64,000 nt of DNA from positions 11,343 through 75,342 of the forward strand of contig SUVA01000004.1 of NCBI GenBank assembly GCA_015062245.1, written 5' to 3'. This DNA is from Alphaproteobacteria bacterium (GTDB lineage: Bacteria; Pseudomonadota; Alphaproteobacteria; CAAHEQ01; UBA3637). Positions within the stretch are counted from its first letter, which is position 1, and the number at the start of each line of letters is the position of its first letter. The notes under the pieces are model-generated. The model was not told where the DNA came from. It saw nothing but the letters and a program-made list of their open reading frames with translations, and did not search any database. This document shows positions 3,500 to 44,199 of this stretch, one piece after another. A program made the position numbers and the translations under genes.

Positions 3500-4135
3500 C
3501 TATTGACTCACCCAAATAACACGGGCCATCCACTTGATATCAGCAGGCTTTAACAAAACGTCATCACAATCCGGATTTAATGATTTTAATTCAACTTGAT
3601 TCATGGAACGGCGAATAAATTCTTTGACCATCACTTCACCCGACACTGTTTTGGTTATCACACGATCACCTTTGCGGATTTCAGAATCGGGCGCTACAAT
3701 CAATTTATCACCATCACGATAGACAGGCTCCATACTGTTACCGGAAACTTCCAAAGCATAAACTTTTTTATCTATCGTCAAAGGAAATTCAACCGAATCC
3801 CAATCATCCGATAGAATCGGCCATCCGTCCGAATCAAAATAACCCGAACGCCCCGCTTTGGCCAAACCGATAAGCGGTATCATATTCTTTGGCATCGGAC
3901 AGGGTTGCCCCGCAAACGCCATAAACTCAAAAACAGTTGTATTGGTCGCCTTTAAAACTTTATTCATACTTTCGGTGGATGGCCAACGTTTGCGCCCATC
4001 AGCACCAATACGTTTGGATTTATTAAAACTGGTGGGATCCAAACCAGCCTTTTGTGCCAAAGCCGACAAAGACAGACCTTTATTTTGCGCCAATCTTTCC
4101 AAACCAAGCCATATTTCATTATAGGATAAGTGCAT
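3500..4135 (-). CDS. HTH + S24 peptidase CI/LexA-like repressor (RogA-like alphaproteobacterial family)
   Basis: N-terminal LSALAQKAGLDPTSFNKSKR...RWPSTES; Ala-Gly site (LAKAG); catalytic VSGNSM Ser and VMVK Lys. Confidence 0.9.
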   Translation of the reverse strand: MHLSYNEIWLGLERLAQNKGLSLSALAQKAGLDPTSFNKSKRIGADGRKRWPSTESMNKVLKATNTTVFEFMAFAGQPCPMPKNMIPLIGLAKAGRSGYFDSDGWPILSDDWDSVEFPLTIDKKVYALEVSGNSMEPVYRDGDKLIVAPDSEIRKGDRVITKTVSGEVMVKEFIRRSMNQVELKSLNPDCDDVLLKPADIKWMARVIWVSQ

Positions 4136-4165
4136 CTTGTTCCTTTCTCTTATTAGTTGTAAATA

Positions 4166-4208
4166 ACCTTAGCATATTTTCAGATGTTTGTCAATAGGAT
4201 TTTTTTCT
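4166..4208 (-). promoter_or_regulatory. Repressor promoter (TTGACA-17-TAAGGT, TGn extended) with degenerate operator just upstream
   Basis: Minus-strand TTGACA 4194-4189 and -10 at 4171-4166; GGAT-TTTT-TTCT at 4197-4208 is a 2-mismatch GGAA-N4-TTCC. Confidence 0.55.
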
Positions 4209-4243
4209 TATTTTTATCTTGACATTCATAAAAAAATATGTTA

Positions 4244-4258
4244 GTTCTCGTTTTGTTC
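4244..4258 (+). promoter_or_regulatory. Alphaproteobacterial LexA (SOS) box GTTC-N7-GTTC
   Basis: GTTCTCGTTTTGTTC overlaps the -10/+1 region of a promoter with TTGACA at 4219-4224. Confidence 0.75.
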
Positions 4259-4284
4259 TTTTTTTATTAACCGAGGAGAAAAAT

Positions 4285-4644
4285 ATGAAGAATAAATATC
4301 TATCATCTGTTGATACCAGACAAACAACACCTTTTTCTTCCAGTGAAGAGGCGTGGTTTTGGTACTGTTTATGTGAAAATTTAAAACACGAAAGAAGCCA
4401 TGGGGGAGAATCCAAAATTGCACGCCCGTGCGAATCGGCCGACATCGCCATTGCCGTAAAAAGATTGATGAAAAACGGCACATTAAAATCAGAACATTTA
4501 AAAGTATTAGCCAAATATGGTTACGCCCAAATTCCCCCACACGAACATTTTGGGGACACACCGAAAATTTGCCGTCTGTGGCAAGAAGGTTTAAAGTTTT
4601 TGGAAAATCTTTTAAAACAAAAAGGAATCGTTTATGCCACATAA
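4285..4644 (+). CDS. Conserved hypothetical protein, candidate activator/antiterminator of the virion module
   Basis: GAGGAG RBS; PFSSSEEAWFW...RPCE...LW.EGL...KGIV; divergent from the repressor. Confidence 0.7.
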   Translation: MKNKYLSSVDTRQTTPFSSSEEAWFWYCLCENLKHERSHGGESKIARPCESADIAIAVKRLMKNGTLKSEHLKVLAKYGYAQIPPHEHFGDTPKICRLWQEGLKFLENLLKQKGIVYAT

Positions 4645-5115: not shown

Positions 5116-5150
5116 AAAAGAACTTTTCACATTGTGAAAGGTTCTTTTTT
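5116..5150 (+). terminator. Intrinsic terminator inside the leader of the virion operon
   Basis: Stem AAAAGAACTTTTCAC / ATT / GTGAAAGGTTCTTTT ending in a T run; lies between the promoter and the portal ATG (5186). Confidence 0.7.
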
Positions 5151-5185
5151 CTATTTTTAGTTGCAATCAACCAAAAGGAGAAAAA

Positions 5186-6652
5186 ATGTCCGATATCAAA
5201 AAATTGTATCAAATGTATCAACAAAGCGTTCAACAACGATCTGATTGGGAATCTGTTTGGCAGGAATGTTATGCCTATGCCCTGCCAAGTCGACAAACAA
5301 CATTTTCACCCAATGCCGGCAAAATTTCCGATTTATATGATGCCACCGCTTTGGATGCCACAGACCAATTGGCCGCTTTAATCTTATCCGAATTGACACC
5401 GCCTTGGATTCAATGGTTTCAATTAAATGCCGGGGAAGAATTATCCTCAGGTGAAAAAATCCAAATCGCACCGACCTTAAATAAAATTTCAAATACCTTG
5501 CAATCTCATTTGGACAGATCCAACTTTGCGACCGAAATCCATCAATGTTATTTGGATTTAATCACGGTCGGAACAGCCTGTTTATTATTTGAACAAAACG
5601 ATATCGGTTCGTCATCGGCTTTTAAATTCACCGCCATACCGTTAAACGAAATATGTTTGGCCGAAGGCAAAAACGGCAGATTAGATAAAGTTTTCAGAAG
5701 TTTTTCCTTAGACGAAGAAAGTTTCGTTTCCAAATTCGGCATTCATAAACTGCCCAAACGTGATAAAAATGACAAAACACCTTTGCGCATTATAGAAGCT
5801 TTAATTCCCTGTGCCAAAGGCGGATATACACTCACTTGCTTTTTAGATCCCAATTGCCAGTCTTTCTCAGGCGATAATCAGGAGTCACCTTTCCTCCTGA
5901 GCGAAACACATTACACCACTTCGCCGTTTATCGCTTTCCGCTGGCTGAAAGCACCGGGGGAAATTTACGGGCGTTCCCCTGTCATGAAAGCTTTACCCGA
6001 TATTAAAACAGCCAACAAAGTCGTGGAATTGATTTTGAAAAACGCCACGATTGCCGTGACAGGTATCTGGTTAGCCGAAGATGATGGTGTGCTCAACCCC
6101 GCCACCATCAATCTGACCCCCGGTGCGATTATTCCAAAAGCCGTCGGCTCCAAAGGTTTAACGCCTTTGGAAGCCCCCGGCAAGTTTGATGTTTCGCAAT
6201 TGGTCATCAAGGATTTGCGTGAACGTATTCGTCATGCATTATTGGGCGATAAATTAGGAACGGTTTGTGATGAAATGAAAATGACCGCCACCGAAGTTTT
6301 GGAACGAAGCGAAGAAATGATTCGCATTTTGGGTGCCACCTATGGTCGTTTACAATCGGAACTTTTAACACCATTGATTGAAAGGGCTATTTGTATTTTA
6401 CGCAAACGTGGCGAAATTCCCGAAATCTTTTTGGACGGCCATTTATTAAACGTCAGCTATAAATCACCACGGGCCGAAAATCAGGCCAAAAAAGAAGCGC
6501 AAAATGCTTTTGCTTGGCTATCGGCTGTATCAGGTTTAGGAAATGAAGTTTTAAGCAAAATGAACACTGATGAAATTTTAAAATGGCTGACCGAAAAAAT
6601 GGGATTGCCCGCCAATTTTGTTCAATTACAACCAACCGAAGGCACACCATGA
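5186..6652 (+). CDS. Podovirus-type portal (head-tail connector, T7 gp8-like)
   Basis: WQECYAYALP, YDATA, PPWIQWF, RWLKAPGEIYGRSP, MTATEV...LGATYGRLQSELL motifs. Confidence 0.92.
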   Translation: MSDIKKLYQMYQQSVQQRSDWESVWQECYAYALPSRQTTFSPNAGKISDLYDATALDATDQLAALILSELTPPWIQWFQLNAGEELSSGEKIQIAPTLNKISNTLQSHLDRSNFATEIHQCYLDLITVGTACLLFEQNDIGSSSAFKFTAIPLNEICLAEGKNGRLDKVFRSFSLDEESFVSKFGIHKLPKRDKNDKTPLRIIEALIPCAKGGYTLTCFLDPNCQSFSGDNQESPFLLSETHYTTSPFIAFRWLKAPGEIYGRSPVMKALPDIKTANKVVELILKNATIAVTGIWLAEDDGVLNPATINLTPGAIIPKAVGSKGLTPLEAPGKFDVSQLVIKDLRERIRHALLGDKLGTVCDEMKMTATEVLERSEEMIRILGATYGRLQSELLTPLIERAICILRKRGEIPEIFLDGHLLNVSYKSPRAENQAKKEAQNAFAWLSAVSGLGNEVLSKMNTDEILKWLTEKMGLPANFVQLQPTEGTP

Positions 6653-11828: not shown

Positions 11829-13179
11829 GATGCAAAATCTGATGGTGCCGAATCACCACAAAATAATGGGGCGTTTTTTGTCTGAACTTTATTTTTCAAA
11901 AGGGCGCAGACAGGCTGTCTTGATGGCCTTTCGCAATTCAGGAAAATCAACCATTGTCGGATTGTTTTGCGCTTGGCTTTTAACACAAAATCCAAATTTA
12001 AGATTATTGGTTTTATCGGCCGATCATGCTTTGGCACAAAAGATGGTCCGGCATATCAAACATATTTTGGAACAACATCCTTTATGCGATGGTTTAAAAC
12101 CAAACCATGCCGAAGAATGGGCCGGTGATAAATTGACCGTTCAACGCCCTGTCAAAGGGCGTGATCCATCTGTGTTGGCCCGTGGTTTAAACGCCAATAT
12201 CACAGGGTGCCGAGCCGATATTATTTTGTGTGATGATGTGGAAGTTCCCAAAACATGCAATACCGCATCCAAACGACAGGATTTAATACAAAAACTGGAT
12301 GAATTGGATTACATATTATCGCCTGACGGATTGATTTTATATATTGGGACACCCCATACACGCCAAACAATTTACCACAAACCCGATTGGAAAATTTTAA
12401 AATTGCCGATTATGGATAAAAACGGACAATCCGTTTGGCCCGAAAGATTTTCTTTGGATAAGATAAACCAAATCAAAAAAACAACACCCCGCTTTAAATT
12501 TTTAAGCCAAATGATGTTAGAAGCGGTGGCCTTGGATAATCAACGGCTGGATGATAAAAAATTAAAAATTTATTCGCAAGGTTTGGATTATACCGAAGCC
12601 AATGGAAAAGCCGTTTTAAAATTAAACGGGCATAGGTTGGTTTCAGGTTGCGCCTGGTGGGATCCGGCCTTTGGTAAAGTCGGTGGTGATAAAAGCGTTG
12701 TCGCATGCGTTTTTTCGGACGCAAACGGTTTTCATTACATCCATCAATTATTATATTTAACCGTTCCAGAAAACGAAGAAGCAACCTCTTATCAATGTCA
12801 AAAAGTTGTTCAGTTTTTAAAAGAATTGATGTTGCCGGCCATTCATTTGGAAACAAACGGTATCGGGCGATTTTTACCGGCCCTGTTGCGTCAGGAATTA
12901 TCCCGCCAACGATTGGCGGTGGCCGTGTTGGAAGAAACCGCCCGACAAAATAAAACCGAACGCATTTTGGGCGCCATAGAACCACCGCTTTTAAACGGCA
13001 ACCTATACGCCCACGAAAGTGTTTTAAAAACACCTTTTATTTATGAAATGCAAGACTTTAATACATCGGGAAATACCCATGATGACGGCTTGGATGCCGT
13101 GGCGGGATGTTTGTTGAGCGAACCTGTTCGTTTGAAAACTTTACCGTTTTTTTATAAACAACGCCCCCTGTGGCGATAA
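11788..13179 (+). CDS. terL: Terminase large subunit (T7-like)
   Basis: Walker A AFRNSGKS, Walker B IILCDDVE, YIGTPH, nuclease WWDPA and HDDGLDA. Confidence 0.92.
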   Translation: MKTTFLEFVWIWDKMQNLMVPNHHKIMGRFLSELYFSKGRRQAVLMAFRNSGKSTIVGLFCAWLLTQNPNLRLLVLSADHALAQKMVRHIKHILEQHPLCDGLKPNHAEEWAGDKLTVQRPVKGRDPSVLARGLNANITGCRADIILCDDVEVPKTCNTASKRQDLIQKLDELDYILSPDGLILYIGTPHTRQTIYHKPDWKILKLPIMDKNGQSVWPERFSLDKINQIKKTTPRFKFLSQMMLEAVALDNQRLDDKKLKIYSQGLDYTEANGKAVLKLNGHRLVSGCAWWDPAFGKVGGDKSVVACVFSDANGFHYIHQLLYLTVPENEEATSYQCQKVVQFLKELMLPAIHLETNGIGRFLPALLRQELSRQRLAVAVLEETARQNKTERILGAIEPPLLNGNLYAHESVLKTPFIYEMQDFNTSGNTHDDGLDAVAGCLLSEPVRLKTLPFFYKQRPLWR

Positions 13180-13188
13180 GGAGAAAAA

Positions 13189-13593
13189 ATGACAGAAGAA
13201 GAAATCTTTTCAAAAACAATTTACGGTGAAGCCCGTGGCGAATCTTTGGCCGGTCAAGAGGCGGTGGCCAATGTGATACTCAATCGGGTTAAAATGAATC
13301 TGATTCAACCGATGTGGTGGGGCAAAAATATCCGTGAAGTATGTTTAAAGCCCAAACAATTTTCGTGTTGGAATCATAATGATGTCAATTACAAAATTTT
13401 AAAAAGCGATTTATCCCAAAATCCCGTTTATCAGATTTGCCAAAGAATTGTCAAACGTGCTTTGGCCGGTGTATTGACAGATAACACAAACGGTGCCACA
13501 CACTATCACACCATTGAATGTCATCCCCTGTGGGCCAGACATTTGATTCCGTGCGCCCAAATCGGCAATCATTTGTTTTATAAAAATGTTTAA
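13189..13593 (+). CDS. Cell wall hydrolase (SleB/Hydrolase_2), putative endolysin
   Basis: TIYGEARGE...VANVILNR...QFSCWN...GATHYH...IGNHLFY. Confidence 0.9.
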   Translation: MTEEEIFSKTIYGEARGESLAGQEAVANVILNRVKMNLIQPMWWGKNIREVCLKPKQFSCWNHNDVNYKILKSDLSQNPVYQICQRIVKRALAGVLTDNTNGATHYHTIECHPLWARHLIPCAQIGNHLFYKNV

Positions 13594-13843: not shown

Positions 13844-14023
13844 ATGTTAAACTTTATTATCAATCACTTTTATGATTTTATCACAGCATTGACATCTATC
13901 GTTACGGGGGCCAGCGTTTTAACCGCCATTACCCCCAATTCAAAGGACGACAAAATTGTATCAAAAATCAAAAACGTTTTGGATGTTTGCGCCCTAAACG
14001 TGGCCAATGCCAAGCCGGCCTAA
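13844..14023 (+). CDS. 59-aa holin-like membrane peptide (not in ORF track)
   Basis: AGGAG RBS; MLNFIINHFYDFITALTSIVTGASVLTAITPNSKDDKIVSKIKNVLDVCALNVANAKPA. Confidence 0.7.
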   Translation: MLNFIINHFYDFITALTSIVTGASVLTAITPNSKDDKIVSKIKNVLDVCALNVANAKPA

Positions 14024-15141
14024 CCGCCCAAGCCCATACCGCTGACCATTTGATCCTGCATGGCAAAGGTTCCCCAAACCACCCAACCGATAACACCGGC
14101 AATGGACAAAATAGCAATTGAGTTTAAAATTTCCGCCTGCTTTCCGATGGTGCGAACGGATGATTCCAACCAACCGTTGGCCAAATTTTCCAATGCTTCG
14201 GCAAAGGTATCCAATTCCGAATAAATCCGCAAATCGCCAATCACTTCATCATCGGGAAAACCATATCGGCTATGATACAACGCTTCACCCAAGTTATCAC
14301 CGTTACTGATAAACATCAAAGCTCGATTTAAACGGCTTTTTAAATAGGGACTGGAATCATCACCAATCAAAGAACGAACCGCCTTTGATACCGGCATACC
14401 CGCACGCACCAAAGCCGATAAAGCCAGCAACCAGCTGACCCCAACAAAACCACGATAAATGGACCAAGGCGGAAATTTATCAAAAGCCGCCCGCCCCCAA
14501 CCTTTCCAATAAGGAAATGTAATCATCACACAAATACTGATTGTCGGCACAATGGCAAACAATAATATCGGGTGTTGGTCCACAAAGTTAGATAAATCAA
14601 TCAAACTTTTGGCCACACCTTTCCATTGTAAATTTGGCACGGCTTCTTTCATCGGTGGCACCATAAATTTGGCCACACCCCAAATCAACAAAGCAACCAT
14701 GCACAGCAAAAACAAAGGATAGGCCACAGCGCCCCATACCAAAGCGCGCATTTTGTTCATACCTTCCACCACACGCACCGTATGTTCCAAGGCCAATTCC
14801 AAATTCGCCACATCACCCACAGACAGCAACAGCAATTCATTTTGTGGCGCCCATCCACGCAAAGATTCAGAAAACGTTTGACCGTTTCGGATTTTTGTCA
14901 TCCAGTTAGCAACGGCCATCGCCATTGTATCTGTTGGACTTTTACCGTCTTTTGAAGCAATTTGATACAACCGTTCCAAAGCATCCATCAAAGAGAATCT
15001 GTTTTTCAAAAGGGCCGACAATTTACGATACATTTCCAACCGATCTTCGGCGTGTAAGCGCACCATAAATTGCGCATAGGCCATATTGATAGATTCCAAT
15101 GTACCGCCTTTTAATCTTATTTCTTCTTTTTTTTGTGCCAT
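14020..15141 (-). CDS. pilR: Type IVb pilus platform protein (PilR/BfpE, T2SS F family)
   Basis: Two T2SSF-like repeats and three TM segments; follows the ATPase gene. Confidence 0.85.
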   Translation of the reverse strand: MAQKKEEIRLKGGTLESINMAYAQFMVRLHAEDRLEMYRKLSALLKNRFSLMDALERLYQIASKDGKSPTDTMAMAVANWMTKIRNGQTFSESLRGWAPQNELLLLSVGDVANLELALEHTVRVVEGMNKMRALVWGAVAYPLFLLCMVALLIWGVAKFMVPPMKEAVPNLQWKGVAKSLIDLSNFVDQHPILLFAIVPTISICVMITFPYWKGWGRAAFDKFPPWSIYRGFVGVSWLLALSALVRAGMPVSKAVRSLIGDDSSPYLKSRLNRALMFISNGDNLGEALYHSRYGFPDDEVIGDLRIYSELDTFAEALENLANGWLESSVRTIGKQAEILNSIAILSIAGVIGWVVWGTFAMQDQMVSGMGLGG

Positions 15142-15153
15142 GTTACACCATCC

Positions 15154-17124
15154 TTAAATCAGGTTCGGTTGATTGAGCTGACCACACCAACGTTCCACTT
15201 CTTCAATATCAAACTCACCTTTAAACATATGTTCTATGGCCCCTTCTTTCAAGGTACGGCCATGTAAATCCGTTACCCAATAATTTAAAGCCTTTTGTGT
15301 TTCACCTTTTAACATCAAATCCAAAAAGGTTGTATCGGGCAAAATAAATTCCGCCACGGCCGAACGACCGCTGACACCACGAAAATCACATTCTTCACAC
15401 CCTGCCCCACGCAAATAGGTGTTTTCCAATCCGATATCCCCATAGGCTTCACGCAAACGTTGAACGGCCGGATGATTCAATTGTGTTTTGGTTGCCACAC
15501 GACAAAACGGACAAACTTTACGGAACAAACGTTGCGCCAACATACCACGCATAATGGACGGATCCTGTAATTTAAAATCTTCCACACCGATATCCTTTAA
15601 ACGCAACAAAACCGCCGAAGCCGTATTGGCGTGCAAAGTTGTCCACACGTTATGACCTGACAAAGCACCACGGAAAGCCAAATCGGCCGCAGAAAGTGTA
15701 CGAATTTCACCGATCATCAATGAATCAGGGTCAGAACGCAACGCCGCCGACAAAGCCTTGGTAAATTCACGGTCTTTGGCTTCTTCTATGCCGGCATTTG
15801 TCACCGGCATCTGACGGGCCCCAGGGATGGGATATTCGGGCGGATCTTCCACCGTAATCAAGTTGGTTTCATAATTACGTTCTTTTAGCATGGAAATCAT
15901 ATTACGTTGCAAGGTTGTGGATTTTCCCGAACCGGTCGGCCCCGACACAACCACAATTCCCGTGGGTAATGACCGCAAATATCTGAATTTTTCAATATCA
16001 TAATCCGAAAAACCCAAACTTTCAAGTGCTTGATCGCCGGTGGCCGCATTTTCATCCGCATACAATAAACGGATAATCACATAACGTGTACCAAAGGCAA
16101 TCGGGTTAAATTGCAAACGCAAACCCAAAACAGATTTCGGCAATACCAAACGCCCACCCGAACCACGCAAGGGCGTACGCCCCAATTTTTGGGCCGCCTG
16201 ATATTCATTTTGGGCATAGTTGGAATCCGAAACGTCCGCCGAAGCAAAGGCTGCACGCACAAAACTTTCGCCCCAATCTTTATTGTATTCCATTTCTGTT
16301 TGCATCAAACCGTTGACACGGAATAAAACCGTTGTATGATCGGCCACTACGATATGAATATCGGACACGTGATTGATGGCGGCACGGGAAATCACCGTCA
16401 CAAAGTCCCGTTGCATACGTGTTTGACGTTGTGCCTCTTCGGCACTGATGGTATCCGTGGCAGTACGAATTTGATCGGCGTATGTATAAATCGCCAACAA
16501 TTCAGAAGGTGTCACATATTCGGGATCTGAAATTTGCAAACGCCTTTTTTTGGCCAAATATTCAAACCCCAAAACACGACCGTCATATTTACTTTCTTCT
16601 ACCACAAAAAAACGGCCGTTTGAAAACAAAGCCAACAACTTGCGTGTTTCTTCATTGACGGGAAAGGATCCTGTTTCCGATGTCATACATTCGTTTGAAT
16701 TATCATATAAATCCTTTAAAAAACGAACAGAACTATGATCGTTCGGATCCACTTCATATGAGTAAAGTTCTTTTTTATTGTCTTCTTCGGCGTGCGGATC
16801 TTCTTCAACGGTCAATTTTGTTTGAGCCGTAATTTCCTCAGGCACAACCTCTTGTTGTGGTTGTTGAGGGGGTGTATCTGAAAATTCCTTTAACGTATCC
16901 AATGATTCCGATAAATTTTGACGGGGTGCCAAAATATCGGATGATGAAAACCCCTGATTATCACCTGTTTGCGGTTGCTGTGATGATTGTTGAATATCCG
17001 AAGAAACGGCTTGCCCCGGTAATACCGGGGACGAAAAAACACCATCGGATTTTTCAATACCGTTGTTTTCAGATACAGTTTCAGAAATGATTTTTTGATC
17101 TTCTCCCACCATCTTAAAATCCAA
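15154..17124 (-). CDS. pilQ: Type IVb pilus assembly ATPase (PilQ, GspE/PulE family)
   Basis: SDIHI, GPTGSGKSTT, TVEDPPEY, LRSDPD.IGEIR, TTLHAN, CxxC...CxxC. Confidence 0.92.
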   Translation of the reverse strand: MDFKMVGEDQKIISETVSENNGIEKSDGVFSSPVLPGQAVSSDIQQSSQQPQTGDNQGFSSSDILAPRQNLSESLDTLKEFSDTPPQQPQQEVVPEEITAQTKLTVEEDPHAEEDNKKELYSYEVDPNDHSSVRFLKDLYDNSNECMTSETGSFPVNEETRKLLALFSNGRFFVVEESKYDGRVLGFEYLAKKRRLQISDPEYVTPSELLAIYTYADQIRTATDTISAEEAQRQTRMQRDFVTVISRAAINHVSDIHIVVADHTTVLFRVNGLMQTEMEYNKDWGESFVRAAFASADVSDSNYAQNEYQAAQKLGRTPLRGSGGRLVLPKSVLGLRLQFNPIAFGTRYVIIRLLYADENAATGDQALESLGFSDYDIEKFRYLRSLPTGIVVVSGPTGSGKSTTLQRNMISMLKERNYETNLITVEDPPEYPIPGARQMPVTNAGIEEAKDREFTKALSAALRSDPDSLMIGEIRTLSAADLAFRGALSGHNVWTTLHANTASAVLLRLKDIGVEDFKLQDPSIMRGMLAQRLFRKVCPFCRVATKTQLNHPAVQRLREAYGDIGLENTYLRGAGCEECDFRGVSGRSAVAEFILPDTTFLDLMLKGETQKALNYWVTDLHGRTLKEGAIEHMFKGEFDIEEVERWCGQLNQPNLI

Positions 17125-17129
17125 TCAAA

Positions 17130-18050
17130 CTAAAACGTAATCACATATTCGGCATTATCACGCAATAAAATAACACTGTCTGGTGTAACGGCTGTTACAA
17201 TTTCGCCCAGCAAATTTTCACCCGTACGAACAGTGGTAATTTGATTAGAGGCTGTATTTTTGACACGGGCCTGTAAATTACCACGGGTTCCTTTAACATC
17301 CACCAAAACATAAGACGGATGTGTAACGATGGGTTCCAAATCGGCATCTGTTGTTTCGTCAACAACAACGGCTTCCGGCACCAACTGAACCTGTTGTTGA
17401 GCCTGGGCTTGTGCCTGCGCTTGGGCCTCTTGAACAGCCCGTTGCGCCTCAGCTAATTGTTCTTTTAAGGCCTCGGCTTCCTGACGTTGAGCTTTTAATT
17501 CTTCGGCTTCCTGACGTTGTTTTTCGGCTTCCAAACGCAATTTTTCCTGTTCTTGCCACCATTGAATACGCGTCCGAATCACATCTTCACGTTTGGCAAT
17601 TTCATCCAAGCGATTTTGACGATAGGTTGCCCGCAAGTTTTCCAAATCATTTGTCATCTGAGCCTTTTGAATTTGTAATTTCAAAAAGGCATTATCTCTT
17701 TCCAATTCGGCCATTTCTTCAAAAACATCCGGATTTAAACGACCCAATAATTGTTCACTGGGATAATCATTATCACCCACAGATTCCGAAAAAGGCGCCG
17801 GCCCCGTGATATTTGTTTCACCAACACCGGGTAAGGTTGTCAGTTCCAATTCGTCCATAGAAGTACGGGCAGAAAAATCAACCGTTTTTTTATTGCTTAA
17901 ATCAATATCCGTCAATCCCAACGATTTTGAAACATCCGGTTGAGGTGCTTCGGTTTTGGGCGGGACAGTTGTATCAATCGTCATTGCCCAAGCGGGTACG
18001 GTTAAAAAAGAAATCACGAACAATGTTTTTAAAAATGTTTTATTTTGCAT
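17130..18050 (-). CDS. PilP-like type IVb pilus protein with coiled coil
   Basis: Signal peptide, long E/Q/A coiled coil and C-terminal beta domain; positioned between pilO and pilQ. Confidence 0.65.
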   Translation of the reverse strand: MQNKTFLKTLFVISFLTVPAWAMTIDTTVPPKTEAPQPDVSKSLGLTDIDLSNKKTVDFSARTSMDELELTTLPGVGETNITGPAPFSESVGDNDYPSEQLLGRLNPDVFEEMAELERDNAFLKLQIQKAQMTNDLENLRATYRQNRLDEIAKREDVIRTRIQWWQEQEKLRLEAEKQRQEAEELKAQRQEAEALKEQLAEAQRAVQEAQAQAQAQAQQQVQLVPEAVVVDETTDADLEPIVTHPSYVLVDVKGTRGNLQARVKNTASNQITTVRTGENLLGEIVTAVTPDSVILLRDNAEYVITF

Positions 18051-19398
18051 AGATTCTTCCCTCATACTTCCATTTGTTTGTTGCATCGCCGGACGGCGTA
18101 TATTCCAGTTTTGTTATTTCCAAACCGGAAAACTTTTCAAAAAACGACAACCATTCCATCGGGGCATACGGTGATAAAACCACAAAAGAATAGTATGTGT
18201 ATGTTTTTTGATTGGGTGGACGTGTTCCATCGGCCCGATTGGGCGGATCCAACAGCGTTTGACGGTTAAATTGAAAACTTAAACCAGTTGCCTGTTGAAT
18301 TTCACGAATGTCTTCTTCTAATTCTATCGGGGTCATTTTGGGTTCAGATGAAACAGTGGACAGCTTTGTATCAAAAGTGACCATACCGGTGGCCGATGTT
18401 CCATCAGATTTAATATCAATTTTAAAATTCGGATTTAATTGATATTCATTGACACCATATCGCATCCAAGACAAACGCCCCAATTTGGGATCGGACAATC
18501 GCCAATTGGTCATCACTTCGCCCGGGGTACATTGGATTGTTCCCATGGTCCACCCCGGCACAATAACCGAACGCACCTGATAAGCGGTATCCCAACAACG
18601 ATCAAAAAATTGCTTCATATCCGGCAAAACTTCCCATGGCTTATGGGTGGCAGTTGGCGGTGGTGCCTGAACCCCTATTCCCGTTGTACCGGTAGGTTTG
18701 CGAATCACATCTGTATCATCGGTGAAAACTTCACTTAAAACCTGAACCAACATCCAAATTAAATAGCCCAACCCTAAAACAATCAAAAGCGCAATTGCCA
18801 ACAAAAACTTTGTTCTTTTTTGGGCATTGATGGATTGCAAACGAACCTTGCGGGTACCATGAACAAGCTTGGTTAAATCTTCCTGTTGAACGCCTTCAAT
18901 ATTCCATTCGGGCGGTACAATACGAATTCCCCAATCCGGCACCGCCATCATAGAGGCATAAGCCTTTTGTGCTTCCACTTCGGTGGCAAAAACAATATCC
19001 TCTTCGGCCAAAATTAAATCGTTACGAATGGCAATCAACCACCATCCTTCATCCACACGGAAAACAGCACAAACAGAACTGTATTCGGTTAAAACAGACG
19101 CCACGGCGGCCGCCAAAGACGGCATACCGTCACGATGCCCTAAATCGCTGTACCCCATACCGTATTGCGGGGTTGCCGCCGGACGCAAACAGTATAAATC
19201 GGCCCCTGTTTCGCTGTCGGCAGATTCGCGAATTTCAACAATCGGATCGTCCAGATTTTGAACCGGTTGCCATACCAAGCCAACCGCATATTTTTGACCG
19301 TCAACGGTCACAACACCGGTTGAGGAACGTTTGACGACCTCTTCCCGTGTTGTTTCCAATTGGTCAATTAAATTTGCCGGTTGTTCTTCTTTTTCCAT
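18040..19398 (-). CDS. pilO: Type IVb pilus accessory protein PilO2
   Basis: YAVGLVWQP, SLAAAVA, central TM helix, PW...VPGW motifs. Confidence 0.8.
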   Translation of the reverse strand: MEKEEQPANLIDQLETTREEVVKRSSTGVVTVDGQKYAVGLVWQPVQNLDDPIVEIRESADSETGADLYCLRPAATPQYGMGYSDLGHRDGMPSLAAAVASVLTEYSSVCAVFRVDEGWWLIAIRNDLILAEEDIVFATEVEAQKAYASMMAVPDWGIRIVPPEWNIEGVQQEDLTKLVHGTRKVRLQSINAQKRTKFLLAIALLIVLGLGYLIWMLVQVLSEVFTDDTDVIRKPTGTTGIGVQAPPPTATHKPWEVLPDMKQFFDRCWDTAYQVRSVIVPGWTMGTIQCTPGEVMTNWRLSDPKLGRLSWMRYGVNEYQLNPNFKIDIKSDGTSATGMVTFDTKLSTVSSEPKMTPIELEEDIREIQQATGLSFQFNRQTLLDPPNRADGTRPPNQKTYTYYSFVVLSPYAPMEWLSFFEKFSGLEITKLEYTPSGDATNKWKYEGRIYAK

Positions 19399-19408
19399 AC
19401 GGACTCCT

Positions 19409-21046
19409 TTAATAATCCCGCATTAAGGCTTCTTGCGACAAGGGGGATTGCAACACCTCGGGTGTCATCAAAATTACCAAAACATTTCGGCTACCTTCAT
19501 TTTTAGCATTGCCACCCAATAATCCCATTTTGGCTTTTCCGACACCTGATGTTTCGGTTGATTCATCAATATCTTCAAAACCGGTTAAGACCAAGGTTTG
19601 ACCTGAGCGCATGGCAATTTCTTGCACAAAACCACGCATTTTCAACCAAGGCAATTGCAAACTTGTTGTGGATGCTTCTTCTTCTGAATCATCCTCAGAA
19701 TCACCTTCGGAAGAAGAGCTTTCTTCGCTGGAACCGGAAGTGACTGTAAAGTTTTCCAATTCCACCAAAGAGGTGATTGACAAATTAAACAACAAAATCA
19801 AACGGCCATGATCCAAAATACGGGGCAACACTTCCATCGTAAAACCATAGTTTAAAGTATCCACTTCATAATCGGTATCGGTGGATTTATCCTCACCACT
19901 GCCCGATGTTGTAACAGTAATTTCCTTTAAATAGTTTCTGGAATCAGAAATCTGCACCGGTGCCACTTTGTTATTCAAAGTTGTGACCGTAGAACTGGTT
20001 ACCAATTGCGTTTTACCTTGCTTTGAAAAGGCCTGAATAAAGGCATTAGAACCGCTAAATTTGCTGCTGGGTCTAATCAAGGTCATCGCCAAAGAACCAG
20101 CCGTTGCAACAGCGCCACCCCCTGTCAATGTTGAGCCCAAACCAGACGGTGATAAATATGATGTTTTGATATTATTATTGCCAAAAATCAATCCCAAATC
20201 CAAACCATAGTTATCGGAATTGGTCAGAGTTACCTGTAAAATACGCACAGTTACCGCCACCTGACGGGATAATTTTTCGTTCCAATTGGCGATATAAGCT
20301 GCCACCTTACGCACGATAAAGGGGCTGGCCGTTACGGTTACGGTTCCCGCCACACGGGAAAAGGACAACTGACCGTTTTCACCGACAACTTGTTTGACAC
20401 CTTCTTCAATACTTTCCCAAACTTTTAAATCGGAATTGACCGACAAGCTGGACGAAGCATTACCGCCCCCACTTTCGCCCATGGTTGCGCCGGTAATGCT
20501 GGCCTGTAAGGATGTTTCGGTCGGCAACGCATAAACCGTAAAGACACGTGTTTCTTTTGTGTAAAAATGTATAGCCCCATCCTTATAGCGCCAATACACA
20601 TTATAACGATTAGCCAAATAATTCAACAAACCGCTTAAAGAACCGGAATATTTCAACGGCACGGCATTTTCGGGAATGGCGTTTTCTTGACGCAAATCAT
20701 CCAAGCGAATATTTATGCCCGTGATATCGGAAATTTCCTGTAAGATATTGGGCAAAGTCGCATCTTCGGATACAGCCATTGTGATACCGTCATCTTTTTC
20801 CAACCAACTGGGCAAAGAATCGCCTTCCATAATTTTGACACTTTGGTTGCCCAAGTAAATATCGTTTTGCATGCGCACGGTATCGGTGGGTTCGGGTAAA
20901 TCAGGAATTTGGGCCATTTCCTTATATTCTTCCACACGGGACAAAGTTTCCTCAATACGTTTGTTCGCCTTGGCCACATGCTGATTACATCCGGATAAGG
21001 CAACACAACCCGCCAACAAAACAATGGATAATTTTTTAATGAGCAT
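19409..21046 (-). CDS. pilN: Lipoprotein secretin (PilN/BfpB type)
   Basis: Lipobox ALSGC; TTLNNKVAP, GFTMEVLPRI, SGQTLVLTGFE, ILMTP. Confidence 0.9.
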   Translation of the reverse strand: MLIKKLSIVLLAGCVALSGCNQHVAKANKRIEETLSRVEEYKEMAQIPDLPEPTDTVRMQNDIYLGNQSVKIMEGDSLPSWLEKDDGITMAVSEDATLPNILQEISDITGINIRLDDLRQENAIPENAVPLKYSGSLSGLLNYLANRYNVYWRYKDGAIHFYTKETRVFTVYALPTETSLQASITGATMGESGGGNASSSLSVNSDLKVWESIEEGVKQVVGENGQLSFSRVAGTVTVTASPFIVRKVAAYIANWNEKLSRQVAVTVRILQVTLTNSDNYGLDLGLIFGNNNIKTSYLSPSGLGSTLTGGGAVATAGSLAMTLIRPSSKFSGSNAFIQAFSKQGKTQLVTSSTVTTLNNKVAPVQISDSRNYLKEITVTTSGSGEDKSTDTDYEVDTLNYGFTMEVLPRILDHGRLILLFNLSITSLVELENFTVTSGSSEESSSSEGDSEDDSEEEASTTSLQLPWLKMRGFVQEIAMRSGQTLVLTGFEDIDESTETSGVGKAKMGLLGGNAKNEGSRNVLVILMTPEVLQSPLSQEALMRDY

Positions 21047-21731
21047 TCTCGTCCTCCTGTATACTGACAACCAAAACACGATTACCACGATAAAAAGTTC
21101 CAATGGGTGCCGGTTTTGCACGGGCAAATGTGCGGATAATAGCACTGGCCACTTCGGTATATGTGCCACGGAAAACAACACCGGCTTCCAAATTATAATC
21201 ACGATCCAATTTCCAAACCAAAGTCCAACCGGATACTTCGGACCATTGGGTCAATAAAGATTTCAACGTTTCGCCACGGGCCGCATCCCAATCATGAACA
21301 CCTTCACCAAAGGCCACTTTTTCATTGGTATCATGGGTAACCCATTTCCCCGACAGGGTTTGATCTTCCAAACGTTCCACTTTGCGTGTCGTTTGAATAT
21401 CCTTTGCGCCCGTGCGCACACCGGAAACCTGAGTCGTTGTTGTGCGAACAGCCCCGCTGGGCAAAACTTCCACACGGGTATCGGCCGGCATAGAATAAGC
21501 CAAAGGCTGATAAGACGTTTTGGTGATGGCAGGTTCCACCTGAATTTCACCGGCCACACAATCCACGCAATCGGGCGCCAAAAACACATCATCCGTGGCA
21601 TACAACATATCGCAACCCGCCCCACCTTTTGAACAATCAACAAACTGACCGGATTGAGCATAACCACCAACAGCACTCATAACAACACCGCCGATAACCA
21701 GAGCATTTAATAAATTCATTTTTTTTAGCAT
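21036..21731 (-). CDS. PilL/TcpQ-domain protein
   Basis: Signal peptide; C-terminal W.A.RGETLKSLLTQWSEVSGWTLVW...DY...F.G TcpQ-like domain. Confidence 0.75.
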   Translation of the reverse strand: MLKKMNLLNALVIGGVVMSAVGGYAQSGQFVDCSKGGAGCDMLYATDDVFLAPDCVDCVAGEIQVEPAITKTSYQPLAYSMPADTRVEVLPSGAVRTTTTQVSGVRTGAKDIQTTRKVERLEDQTLSGKWVTHDTNEKVAFGEGVHDWDAARGETLKSLLTQWSEVSGWTLVWKLDRDYNLEAGVVFRGTYTEVASAIIRTFARAKPAPIGTFYRGNRVLVVSIQEDENAH

Positions 21732-21791
21732 ATCAATCTCCCTGTTTTTCAAAAAACATACACTGTTTTTTTTTATAATACAAGCATTTTT

Positions 21792-22553
21792 TTACCAATT
21801 AATTGTTTTTTGTCTTTTTTTATCTTTTTTTACCTCTTTATCAATTGCATTTGCATAACCGATTAAAACATTATCCACCGCACGGGGGCTTTTGTAAACA
21901 TAGATTTGATGGCGTGAAACACCCTGTTCCATCACGGCCTGTAACATCAACGCCACACGTTTGCTTTGCAACGGCCAATTTTCATCAGATGCACGAATTT
22001 CCACCACCAAACGGGGATCATCACGCACTTTCAACGCAAAAATTTTAATCCATTTTAATGCCTGAGCCGACAAAGCCGATTGCCCCGGATAAAAAGAAAT
22101 GCGAATTTCACGGGGAGCCGAAAAAAAAGTCTTTTTACCGCCTTGTAATTCGGCCAACAAATTATTGGCGTATTCGGGCTGTTTTATAAGTGGTGTAATT
22201 TTTGTATCCACCACAGGTTCAAAGGTTACCTGAGGCATCGGCAAATCCGGCAACTTCGTTAAAACATTTTTTTTGGGGTAATATAAACCGGGGGTTGGCG
22301 TAATTGTTTTGGATTCAATCGGCCGTATGGGTTGGTTGGCATTTAATTTTAAAGCGTTTTCGCCAAAAATCTCACTCAATATATCTTTTTGCGGGGGAAT
22401 TTGGGGCGTTTCAACAAAAACAGGGGCATCCGGCATGGCATAGGTGGGTCCCAAAAAATCATCAGCATTGGGCATAGATAAAACATCCGATGTTTGAGCA
22501 AAAACCCCAAAAGACCATCCCAATACAGCCCAACCAATTAAAAACTTTTTCAT
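21792..22553 (-). CDS. Secreted Pro-rich protein with OmpA_C-like C-terminal domain
   Basis: Signal peptide; ISFYPGQSALS...L...GV...I pattern. Confidence 0.55.
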   Translation of the reverse strand: MKKFLIGWAVLGWSFGVFAQTSDVLSMPNADDFLGPTYAMPDAPVFVETPQIPPQKDILSEIFGENALKLNANQPIRPIESKTITPTPGLYYPKKNVLTKLPDLPMPQVTFEPVVDTKITPLIKQPEYANNLLAELQGGKKTFFSAPREIRISFYPGQSALSAQALKWIKIFALKVRDDPRLVVEIRASDENWPLQSKRVALMLQAVMEQGVSRHQIYVYKSPRAVDNVLIGYANAIDKEVKKDKKRQKTINW

Positions 22554-22604
22554 GCATCCCCCGATGCGAATGTTAAAACCGGATTTAATCATAAACATTA
22601 AAAA

Positions 22605-22621
22605 GTTAATAATTTATTAAC
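22605..22621. promoter_or_regulatory. Candidate CtrA box TTAA-N7-TTAAC
   Basis: GTTAA-TAATTTA-TTAAC upstream of the pil operon; AT-rich context raises the chance of a random match. Confidence 0.4.
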
Positions 22622-22851
22622 AATTGTGAAATTTTTATTTTTTTTGCATTTTTTTATAAAAAATACTGGACAAAGGCAAAATTTTGTTTATGATGTAGTT
22701 ATGGTTTGGAATGGTTCTGAACCAAAAATCAACCCTTATAAGGAGTCATGAAAATCAAAATAAAAAATTGGCCGGCGTATCGTAATCGTCAAAAAATTTT
22801 TGAATTTGAATTGAATTGATGCATCATAAAAAAAAGAAAGGAATATAAAAA

Positions 22852-23187
22852 ATGAAAAAATTATTTAAAACTTTGGCCATTGTGGCCATCTTCGGTATCA
22901 TGGCCTTTGCCGGCAACGCTTGGGCACAAGGTATATCCGGCGTTGTCGATGAACTTTCAAATGTTTTTAATGACGTCAGAACTGTCTTTTATATTTTGGC
23001 CGCTTTTGGTTTGATCGGTATGGCCGCCGGCGCTTTGTTGGGTAAAGTCAAATGGTCATGGTTGTGGGCTTTGGTGTTCGGTGTGGCCGTTGTCGCCTGT
23101 GCCGATTTCATTGTTAGCTACGCTGCTGGCGGAAGCCAAGGACAAAACACTGTGGATCTTGGCAATATGGAACAAGGGTATATTTAA
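22852..23187 (+). CDS. TrbC/VirB2-like pilin
   Basis: Signal peptide ending AWA-Q followed by two hydrophobic helices separated by GKVKW. Confidence 0.65.
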   Translation: MKKLFKTLAIVAIFGIMAFAGNAWAQGISGVVDELSNVFNDVRTVFYILAAFGLIGMAAGALLGKVKWSWLWALVFGVAVVACADFIVSYAAGGSQGQNTVDLGNMEQGYI

Positions 23188-44066: not shown

Positions 44067-44108
44067 AGGAATATTTTCCTTGACTTTTTGTGTGATTTAT
44101 GTTATTAT
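44067..44108 (+). promoter_or_regulatory. Second copy of the operator-promoter module
   Basis: GGAA-TATT-TTCC 44068-44079, TTGACT 44080-44085, 17-bp spacer, TGT-TATTAT 44103-44108. Confidence 0.8.
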
Positions 44109-44167
44109 TTGGTCGATTAGCAGGCACCGGTGTATCCGGTGTTTTTTTGCTAATCTATATCTAATTC

Positions 44168-44199
44168 AAAGGCTCTGCTCTATGGCAGAGTCTTTTTTT
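44168..44199 (+). terminator. Intrinsic terminator in the tail-fibre leader
   Basis: AAAGGCTCTGC / GCAGAGTCTTT hairpin plus T run; a second hairpin lies at 44115-44155. Confidence 0.7.

Follow-up and report, generated by a model that had tools for sequence, protein, structure and literature searches.

A LexA-boxed small gene at the switch of an alphaproteobacterial podovirus-type particle cluster: a candidate Q/AlpA-like antiterminator

Results

The divergent switch

We analyzed a stretch of 64,000 nucleotides (nt) from an alphaproteobacterial genome (assembly GCA_015062245.1, contig SUVA01000004.1, positions 11,343 to 75,342 of the forward strand), hereafter the window, and in it a small gene that lies at a divergent promoter switch beside a cluster of phage-type particle genes. 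This gene encodes a basic protein of 119 amino acids (aa), is the first of a two-gene early operon (small gene, orf135) and diverges from the gene of an S24 CI-like repressor, here called Rep. An SOS box covers its promoter, and control by the host LexA is very likely on the sequence evidence given below. The protein itself may be an SOS-induced antiterminator resembling phage 21 Q (21Q) and AlpA, a reading that we regard as evenly balanced between right and wrong. Coordinates of all features are collected in Table 1.

The two -35 hexamers of the switch stand back to back with 24 bp between them, TGTCAA at 4189-4194 (the leftward TTGACA) and TTGACA at 4219-4224 on the plus strand, just as an initial annotation made from the letters alone had reported. 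That annotation had also described a perfect GTTC-N7-GTTC over the rightward -10 and start, and a basic, helical open reading frame (ORF) without assignable function that diverges from a repressor gene. All of these were found again: the motif at 4244-4258 overlaps the -10 and likely start of the rightward promoter P1, the 119-aa product has an isoelectric point (pI) of 9.06, four predicted helices and no Pfam match, and the divergent gene (3500..4135, minus strand) combines a helix-turn-helix (HTH) with a Peptidase_S24 domain. The median pI across the family of the small protein is 9.07, and GAGGAG stands just 5' of its ATG at 4285. P1 has an extended -10 (TGn-TAGTTC, 4239-4247). Neither P1 nor the leftward Rep promoter was listed by a simple promoter scan, because the -10 hexamers of both are weak. 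When 23 close loci were aligned, the TTGAC of both promoters was invariant and the TA-GTTC of P1 conserved (23/23), and the half-sites of the SOS box were likewise invariant.

Rep matches Peptidase_S24 of Pfam at E 1.8e-23 and PHROG 4, transcriptional repressor, at E 1.1e-25. Its A-G cleavage site, its serine (GNSM) and its lysine (VKEF) align with those of the host LexA, and its HTH region is strongly conserved. The distant Rep orthologues of loci L028 and L032 have lost the A-G site, the serine and the lysine, and at the same loci the small gene has no LexA box; these elements seem, from their sequences, to be uncoupled from the SOS response.

Table 1. Features of the switch, the particle cluster and the detached tail-fibre locus in the window.
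Feature	Start	End	Strand	Description
Rep	3500	4135	-	CI/LexA-like repressor, 211 aa; N-terminal HTH and S24 self-cleaving peptidase domain
Leftward Rep promoter	4166	4194	-	-35 TTGACA (4194-4189), 17 nt, -10 TAAGGT (4171-4166); read from sequence
Operator O1	4196	4209	.	Imperfect palindrome AGGATTTTTTTCTT; between the two -35 boxes, beside the Rep -35
Rightward promoter P1	4219	4247	+	-35 TTGACA (4219-4224), 17-nt spacer with TGn at its end, weak -10 TAGTTC (4242-4247)
LexA (SOS) box	4244	4258	+	GTTCTCGTTTTGTTC; overlaps the P1 -10 and likely start site
Small gene	4285	4644	+	119 aa, basic, four helices; candidate Q/AlpA-like antiterminator
orf135	4660	5067	+	Permuted NlpC/P60/YiiX-like cysteine hydrolase; second early gene
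Operator O2	5044	5057	.	Perfect palindrome AGGAAAATTTTCCT; one-base overlap with the P2 -35
Late promoter P2	5057	5085	+	TTGACA-17-TATAAT with TG, 12/12 consensus matches; overlaps the end of orf135
P2 leader	5094	5115	+	ATTAAAAGATAGAAGTGTATCC; family form cAGTTAAA..TAGAAnTGTATC; candidate loading or pause element
P2 intrinsic terminator	5116	5158	+	Hairpin 5116-5148 (15-bp stem, 3-nt loop), then TTCTATTTTT; between P2 and the portal ATG at 5186
Late operon	5186	13593	+	T7-type portal, scaffold-like ORF, major capsid, tail tubular A and B, two small ORFs, large terminase, cell-wall hydrolase
Operator O3	44067	44080	+	AGGAATATTTTCCT; abuts the P3 -35
Late promoter P3		44108	+	-35 TTGACT (44080-44085), 17 nt, TGn-TATTAT (44100-44108)
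P3 leader and terminators	44125	44199	+	GTGTATCC at 44130-44137; two hairpins with T-runs, 44125-44148 and 44171-44199
Tail-fibre gene	44237	45232	+	T7 tail-fibre N-terminal domain; Pfam Phage_T7_tail, E 2.8e-7, 30.8 bits against a cut-off of 25.2

An SOS box shared with recA

A bare GTTC-N7-GTTC is not found above chance: the window has one where 1.56 are expected, and the 1.12-Mb genome has 21 where its composition predicts about 28. The case for the box rests on its full sequence and its place. The 15 bases at P1, GTTCTCGTTTTGTTC, recur without a change just 5' of recA, the sole other copy in the genome, and a second copy would be expected by chance 0.003 times genome-wide. The narrower form GTTC-yyN-TTTT-GTTC is found at only five of the 21 genomic sites, namely two at lexA and one each at recA, ruvA and the small gene; the ruvA box, a close variant of GTTCTCGTTTTGTTC, sits 5 nt upstream of ruvA. 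GTTCN7GTTC is also the SOS box listed for Caulobacter in Table 1 of PMC9578287. The initial annotation had taken the motif for the LexA box and had allowed for a genome without lexA or with another box. A host lexA is present (43.9 bits against a cut-off of 23.7), as is recA, and the same box serves at lexA, recA and ruvA.

The lexA promoter reads TTGACA-AT-GTTCCTGTTTTGTTC-TAAAAT, followed by the inverse box GAACAAAACAGGAAC. Its geometry (L001 1440-1500, G000:C23) is compact, one box exactly filling the 17-nt spacer between TTGACA and TAAAAT and the inverse one lying just downstream.

Of 30 loci compared (the window's own included), 26 have a box at the orthologous promoter, 25 times in the GTTC form and once in the GAAC form. 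In the 25 loci the perfect box lies 34-43 nt before the ATG, or 65 nt in L023 by its estimated start, while the inverse box, in one distant locus from a 5.9-Mb genome, lies at -38. No box was found at the small-gene promoter in L005, L028, L031 and L032 (4/30). It should be considered that these loci come from related genomes and are not independent samples, and that the signal covers several families. Among 20 loci of other families, seven have a perfect box within 200 bp and three more a box with one mismatch. Since the box is identical to that of recA, has variants at lexA and ruvA, and keeps its place in 26 of 30 loci, LexA would very probably bind over P1, and DNA damage would induce the gene.

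Promoter, operator and terminator at two late loci

Two further promoters, P2 before the portal gene and P3 before the detached tail-fibre gene, share an arrangement of palindromic operator, sigma-70 promoter and intrinsic terminator. The operator motif, AGGA-W6-TCYT, is found at three places in the window (O1, O2 and O3) against 0.24 strand-hits expected, a count reached by none of 100 shuffles, and in the whole genome an operator joined to TTGAC is found only at O2 and O3. In 23 close loci the O1 block, GTCAATAGGAwTTTTTTCTTATTT, is nearly invariant, distant loci have two or three AGGAA..TTCC palindromes at the O1 position, and O2 (AAGGAAAAT..TCCTTGAC) varies little or not at all among 22 close loci. 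Conservation of the operator half-sites extends across the class. The palindromic operators together with the strongly conserved HTH of Rep suggest that a Rep dimer binds O1, O2 and O3, and at the late promoters Rep is most likely the protein that occupies them.

P2 was the top match of the promoter scan in its region, and the hairpin that follows it the strongest terminator-like one. TTGAC[AT]-N16-18-TAnnnT precedes the portal gene in 24 of 29 orthologous loci, and a hairpin with a T-run at or below -11.9 kcal/mol is found in 26 of the 29, against 2 of 290 dinucleotide shuffles; the stem sequences vary by locus. The P2 leader itself folds at -24.8 kcal/mol (z -5.7), and its motif is partly conserved in 22 loci. 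The motif GTGTATCC is common to P2 and P3, 23 nt past the -10 in the former and 22 nt in the latter, and a GTTAA motif is common to both as well. Upstream of the fibre gene, TTGAC was found in all 17 regions compared, the exact operator in 14, and at least one hairpin with a T-run between TTGAC and the ATG again in all 17. The first P3 stem covaries (CACCGG/CCGGTG, CACCAG/CTGGTG, CACTGG/CCAGTG). A promoter followed by a predicted intrinsic terminator ahead of the first gene, which is the layout on which antitermination of the 21Q/AlpA type operates, is the arrangement at both P2 and P3.

A family without a name and a fold that offers a lead

No Pfam family was found for the small protein at E<=0.1, and the sole match of a PHROG search stood at E 0.099. 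Across 101 family members Pfam gave no family apart from one weak DUF3990 match, with zero matches to Sigma70_r4, DUF6456, PF06530 or the Cro/CI HTH families, and nine longer relatives (178-255 aa) showed no additional Pfam domain. On one relative a SHOCT-like match was set aside (26 bits against a cut-off of 27, over 20 residues). Searched with the family profile, PDB sequences yielded no relative, the top match being a cGAS-like receptor at E 0.15, and tblastn of the small protein found no match in 50,697 phage records. In the ESM Atlas the nearest clusters are unnamed; named ones score at most 0.82, and include a DUF1133/Phage_antitermQ cluster at 0.81, which is a lead only.

The family is large, with 342 clusters at E<=0.001 in a 50%-identity protein library. 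A profile of the small protein found one copy each in all 20 other species genomes of the genus, and the protein is present in 29 of 36 genomes of the taxonomic family, in 3 of 24 other families sampled, and in 57 of 401 genomes sampled evenly across the Alphaproteobacteria, about one in seven. A homologue at locus L058 (G186:C1:490000-506400; 13055-13360, minus strand), 30% identical, has GAACATAACAAGAAC 42 nt before its start and stands directly 5' of rmuC and recJ, and the next 13 kb downstream gave no match to the portal or to another gene of the cluster; it could be a host-recruited copy.

The family consensus reads PF.SAEEAWFW ... RPCEP.DI..V.RL...G.L...HL.VL..YG....PP ... LW.EA...L...L..KGIV, with the strongest conservation in the N-terminal half (F17, W24, W26, R47, C49, D53). 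In 21Q and AlpA, as described in PMC9371919, an N-terminal segment lies at the RNA exit channel and a C-terminal HTH reads DNA. The conserved N-terminal half of the small protein would fit a contact with RNA polymerase, and its more variable C-terminus the reading of DNA. The AlphaFold2 model (predicted local distance difference test score, pLDDT, 88) has four helices, with a long low-confidence loop after helix 1 and helices in the C-terminal half.

We compared this model with 48,161 chains in a search independent of Foldseek. Rank 1 was 21Q (6jnx_P; Z 6.1, root-mean-square deviation 4.1, 90 residues) and rank 2 AlpA (7xyb_G; Z 5.6, root-mean-square deviation 3.5, 85 residues), and a series of sigma region 4 domains came next (Z 4-5.3). 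In a second look at 995 chains the top seven were all 21Q (Z 6.1-7.6), two sigma region 4 chains scored 5.3 and 4.5, and the rest scored at most 3.7; every one of these scores lies below the tool's noise line of Z 8. The best rows in BFVD were small phage proteins that bear the label RNA polymerase alpha subunit or sigma factor (E 0.14-0.76, with probabilities up to 0.97); a DUF6456 (GafA-type) protein of phage RDJL Phi 1 was also listed there (probability 0.44). The order of conserved motifs resembles PF06530 by eye (W..W, C.D, L..Y.G, L..AE), a resemblance without statistical support. A complex prediction of the small protein with the RpoB flap domain, run without controls, gave 0.06 and 0.08 against a mark of 0.32 and says nothing either way. 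Of the folds that the initial annotation had named for comparison (Q, sigma region 4 and GafZ), the 21Q/AlpA fold came out best, at scores under the noise line. The match of the model to 21Q and AlpA is a weak lead, and counts for more only through its agreement with promoter and terminator evidence obtained independently.

The particle cluster and its detached fibre gene

A possible alternative regulator, the second early gene orf135, was dismissed for its enzyme-like fold. Its model (pLDDT 88) is nearest to TseH (Z 7.1 over 112 aa) and YiiX (Z 6.0), both hydrolases of the permuted NlpC/P60 type, and H37, D52 and C99 are invariant in 27 orthologues. With orf135 an enzyme, the small protein is the only regulator candidate encoded by the early operon.

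In the late operon the portal was identified by Pfam Head-tail_con (E 1.9e-120), the hydrolase by Hydrolase_2 and the other genes by PHROG. The major capsid protein shares 30-43% identity with its counterparts in HTVC010P-type pelagiphages and some Vibrio podophages. A small ORF, orf95, overlaps the large terminase gene and is a better candidate for the small terminase than the small protein.

Gene order is well kept. Rep (leftward) and the small gene, orf135 and portal (rightward) hold this order in 28 of 30 loci, the exceptions being L005, with no Rep within ±1.5 kb (it lies 1.7 kb further upstream), and L013, which ends before the portal. The twelve genes from Rep to the hydrolase stand in the same order in all 12 extended loci, where orf158 and orf95 have no match in L037, the contig of L044 ends after tubular B, and the hydrolase of L043 matches weakly. 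At the level of the class the small gene adjoins the portal in 18 of 20 loci. The L005/L035 locus (G022:C4), with Rep 1.7 kb from the small gene, has a degenerate LexA box and a stop codon in the orf135 frame; it retains the P2 promoter and a terminator.

The flanks of the cluster are host-like, with CorA on the left and genes for type II secretion or type IV pili on the right, and are syntenic in three species of the genus. Between these flanks no integrase or replication gene was found. The cluster is a domesticated podovirus-type particle cluster of about 10 kb that resembles a gene transfer agent (GTA).

The tail-fibre gene is detached, about 30 kb past the end of the cluster and 39 kb from P2. 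Of 20 genomes of the genus, 17 have this gene, and for the most part gene and cluster stand on different contigs. In G045, a large and distant genome, it lies within the cluster, and its detachment here is therefore secondary. By analogy, fibre and cluster together make up a split 'genome' of the kind seen in known gene transfer agents.

Discussion

The arrangement described here can be assembled into a circuit with two SOS-sensitive repressors and a set of terminators. In an undamaged cell, host LexA bound over the -10 and start would shut P1, Rep would occupy O1-O3, and any transcript that escaped from P2 or P3 would end at the leader terminators. DNA damage would activate RecA, LexA and Rep would cleave themselves, P1 would fire and the small protein would be made. 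P2 and P3 are near-consensus sigma-70 promoters that should need no activator, and predicted intrinsic terminators follow within about 25-80 nt; the small protein, like 21Q or AlpA, would load on RNA polymerase at P2 and P3 and allow read-through of these terminators, whereupon the capsid, tail, fibre, terminase and lysis genes would be expressed. The initial annotation had put the small gene forward as the master antiterminator or activator, coupling particle release to the SOS response. Of the two roles the antiterminator is favored, because P2 already has a perfect sigma-70 consensus and is then followed by a terminator, and 21Q and AlpA are the best folds; the activator is less favored. 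'Master' overstates the case, as the late promoters bear a palindromic operator of their own and the circuit is layered.

The AlpR-AlpA system of Pseudomonas aeruginosa, in which AlpR is a LexA-like self-cleaving repressor, is a close parallel: a small, damage-linked regulator, two target loci with a promoter and then terminators, and lysis as output. According to PMC7969949, AlpA is a processive antiterminator acting at two separate loci, is induced by DNA damage and leads to cell lysis, and intrinsic terminators follow its target promoters, beginning 54 nt from the start site at one locus and 26 nt at the other. AlpA was rank 2 of 48,161 chains for our model (Z 5.6) and has no detectable sequence similarity to the small protein; AlpA shares the fold of 21Q without sequence homology to it (PMC9371919). 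The two systems also differ in layout. The small gene here bears an extra host LexA box, and the late promoters have a palindromic operator on the -35. AlpA binds an element placed between -35 and -10, and no element of this kind was identified here. The output here includes a full set of head, tail and terminase genes rather than lysis genes alone.

Phage 21 Q (PF06530; 6p18, 6p19, 6jnx) is the best structural match (Z 6.1-7.6 over 83-94 of the 119 residues, below the noise line as said); both are small basic proteins and both are associated with a late promoter and then a terminator. In contrast, the small protein has no PF06530 match (0.6% by hhalign), has 119 aa against about 150 residues in the aligned chains, and is encoded at the head of its cluster under a LexA box rather than at the end of a delayed-early operon.

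The Gaf-controlled gene transfer agents, which are siphovirus-like, offer a third comparison, and here the cluster differs in being T7/HTVC010P-like. What is shared is a small dedicated regulator (GafY/GafZ, GafA) of a domesticated alphaproteobacterial particle cluster, and accessory genes elsewhere in the genome that are co-regulated, as related in PMC11150451 and PMC9638019. In the former GafZ is an antiterminator that bypasses terminators in a 14-kb cluster. No DUF6456 match, which would recall GafA and GafZ, was found in the small-protein family. The dependence of RcGTA on LexA is indirect, via CckA, according to PMC9638019, whereas the box here lies on the promoter of the regulator itself.

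In the pyocin system PrtR-PrtN and in coliphage 186 with its Tum protein, a RecA-dependent signal also reaches particle and lysis genes through a small phage-derived gene. PrtN is an activator and Tum an antirepressor, and neither would fit the promoter-terminator layout or the self-cleavage residues that Rep retains.

Several observations weigh against an antiterminator of the Q/AlpA type and should be set beside the evidence for it. Foldseek returned nothing at E<=0.001 for the model in PDB or BFVD, the scores of the other search all fall under its noise line, and sigma region 4 scores nearly as high as 21Q. Alignment of the family with 11 PF06530 members by hhalign gave a probability of 0.6%, which is no sequence link to the 21Q family, and a PF06530 search of the genome found no match. 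Neither a Q-binding element nor a sigma-dependent pause site could be assigned, and the leader motif is a candidate only. Among 18 distant loci with a portal, a promoter and close terminator like those of the window are clear in only three (L045, L052, L063), and the small gene persists in distant loci that lack a clear pair. The LexA-boxed homologue upstream of rmuC-recJ has no portal match within 13 kb downstream. Finally, the palindromes at P2 and P3 could be sites of the small protein itself, which would make it a conventional DNA-bound regulator.

This last point leads to the alternative that the small protein is a Cro-like switch protein. It would then compete with Rep for the AGGA-N6-TCCT palindromes O1-O3, turning off the Rep promoter and adjusting the late ones in the manner of Cro in lambdoid phages, with the terminators overcome by other means. 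The gene has the classical position of cro, first to the right in a divergent CI-type switch; the protein is basic and has at its C-terminus a helix-turn-helix-like part to which sigma region 4 is a match (Z 4.5-5.3); O1 adjoins the Rep -35, and distant loci have two or three palindromes in the switch region, like OR1-3. We nevertheless consider this unlikely. A length of 119 aa and a conserved N-terminal half rich in tryptophan are unlike Cro, no Cro/CI HTH family was found in the 101 members, and the class-wide half-sites and conserved HTH fit Rep as the binder, while the conserved sequence of promoter and terminator at two loci would stay unexplained. The terminators are also left over if the protein is an activator or sigma appropriator resembling sigma region 4, of the RinA/ArpU or GafA/GafY kind, that raises late initiation. 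Many sigma region 4 domains match the model (Z 4-5.3) and the BFVD rows labelled alpha subunit or sigma factor, as well as the DUF6456 row (probability 0.44), point the same way, DUF6456 being the label of GafA (PMC9638019). But an activator would have little to add at P2, with 12 of 12 consensus positions and a TG, or at P3, which is close to it, and neither Sigma70_r4 nor DUF6456 was found in the 101 members. A sigma factor proper, with regions 2 and 4, is not what the protein looks like: it has 119 aa and four helices, too short for both regions, and matches like region 4 only (Z 4.5-5.3). We hold this account to be quite unlikely.

It could also be argued that the small protein is not a regulator at all, and acts instead in packaging or morphogenesis, as a small terminase or DNA-binding accessory, or is an unrelated DNA-damage protein. 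No library that we searched names a function for it, small basic helical proteins beside portal genes are often small terminases, and the homologue 5' of rmuC-recJ is without a portal match in the 13 kb examined. A separate SOS-gated promoter placed ahead of a promoter-terminator barrier speaks for regulation, however, as do fold matches to transcription proteins, and orf95 is the better small-terminase candidate, which makes a non-regulatory role very unlikely. A last alternative, an antirepressor under LexA control that binds and inactivates Rep, appeals to a known architecture, since a LexA-boxed small gene beside a phage repressor is what antirepressor systems such as Tum of coliphage 186 and those of the Gifsy phages, which inactivate phage repressors, present. 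It is most improbable here. Rep retains the A-G, serine and lysine of self-cleaving S24 repressors and would need no antirepressor; L028 and L032, whose Rep lacks these residues, are without a LexA box at the small gene, the opposite of what would be predicted; and the fold matches are RNA polymerase-binding proteins.

If the small protein is indeed an antiterminator, the family would be a new sequence family with the Q/AlpA fold. Processive antiterminators of the Q type are known from few sequence families, and AlpA shows that the fold can hide in proteins without sequence similarity. The unnamed family described here bears the genomic signature of an antiterminator and stands at the switch of a conserved particle cluster. 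The circuit is compact, with two SOS-sensitive repressors and terminators that would decide when a cell sacrifices itself for the release of particles. Whether it all amounts to a working, vertically inherited gene transfer agent of the podovirus type in gut Alphaproteobacteria, with a split genome (the fibre elsewhere) and three SOS locks, is doubtful, though possible. The locks would be a LexA box on the promoter of the regulator, a self-cleaving repressor at the late promoters, and terminators opened by an antiterminator from a new sequence family with the Q/AlpA fold. If true, this would be the first direct link from LexA to a gene transfer agent, and were host DNA packaged in the particles, DNA damage would be a direct driver of gene exchange in an uncultured gut lineage. 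A podovirus-like gene transfer agent was met in the literature searched only for Faecalibacterium (PMC12946183), and that search found no LexA-boxed or podovirus-type gene transfer agent of Alphaproteobacteria to match the present one.

Further observations

Contigs from RNA libraries of related strains (three metatranscriptome runs; 5-7% of sampled words) span rep, the switch, the P2 terminator and the portal. These contigs are short, give no information on starts, ends, strand or level, and may derive from DNA in the libraries, and no conclusion was drawn from them.

Right after the cluster, at 14020-23187 on the minus strand, lie genes for T2SS-F, the T2SS-E ATPase, PilO and a secretin (T2SS, type II secretion system), with a TrbC/VirB2-type pilin gene at 22852-23187 on the plus strand. 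The heptamer TTAGTTG (plus strand) is found at 4153-4159 in the Rep leader, antisense to rep, and again at 5157-5163 just past the P2 terminator; the copy at 4153-4159 is invariant in all 23 close loci.

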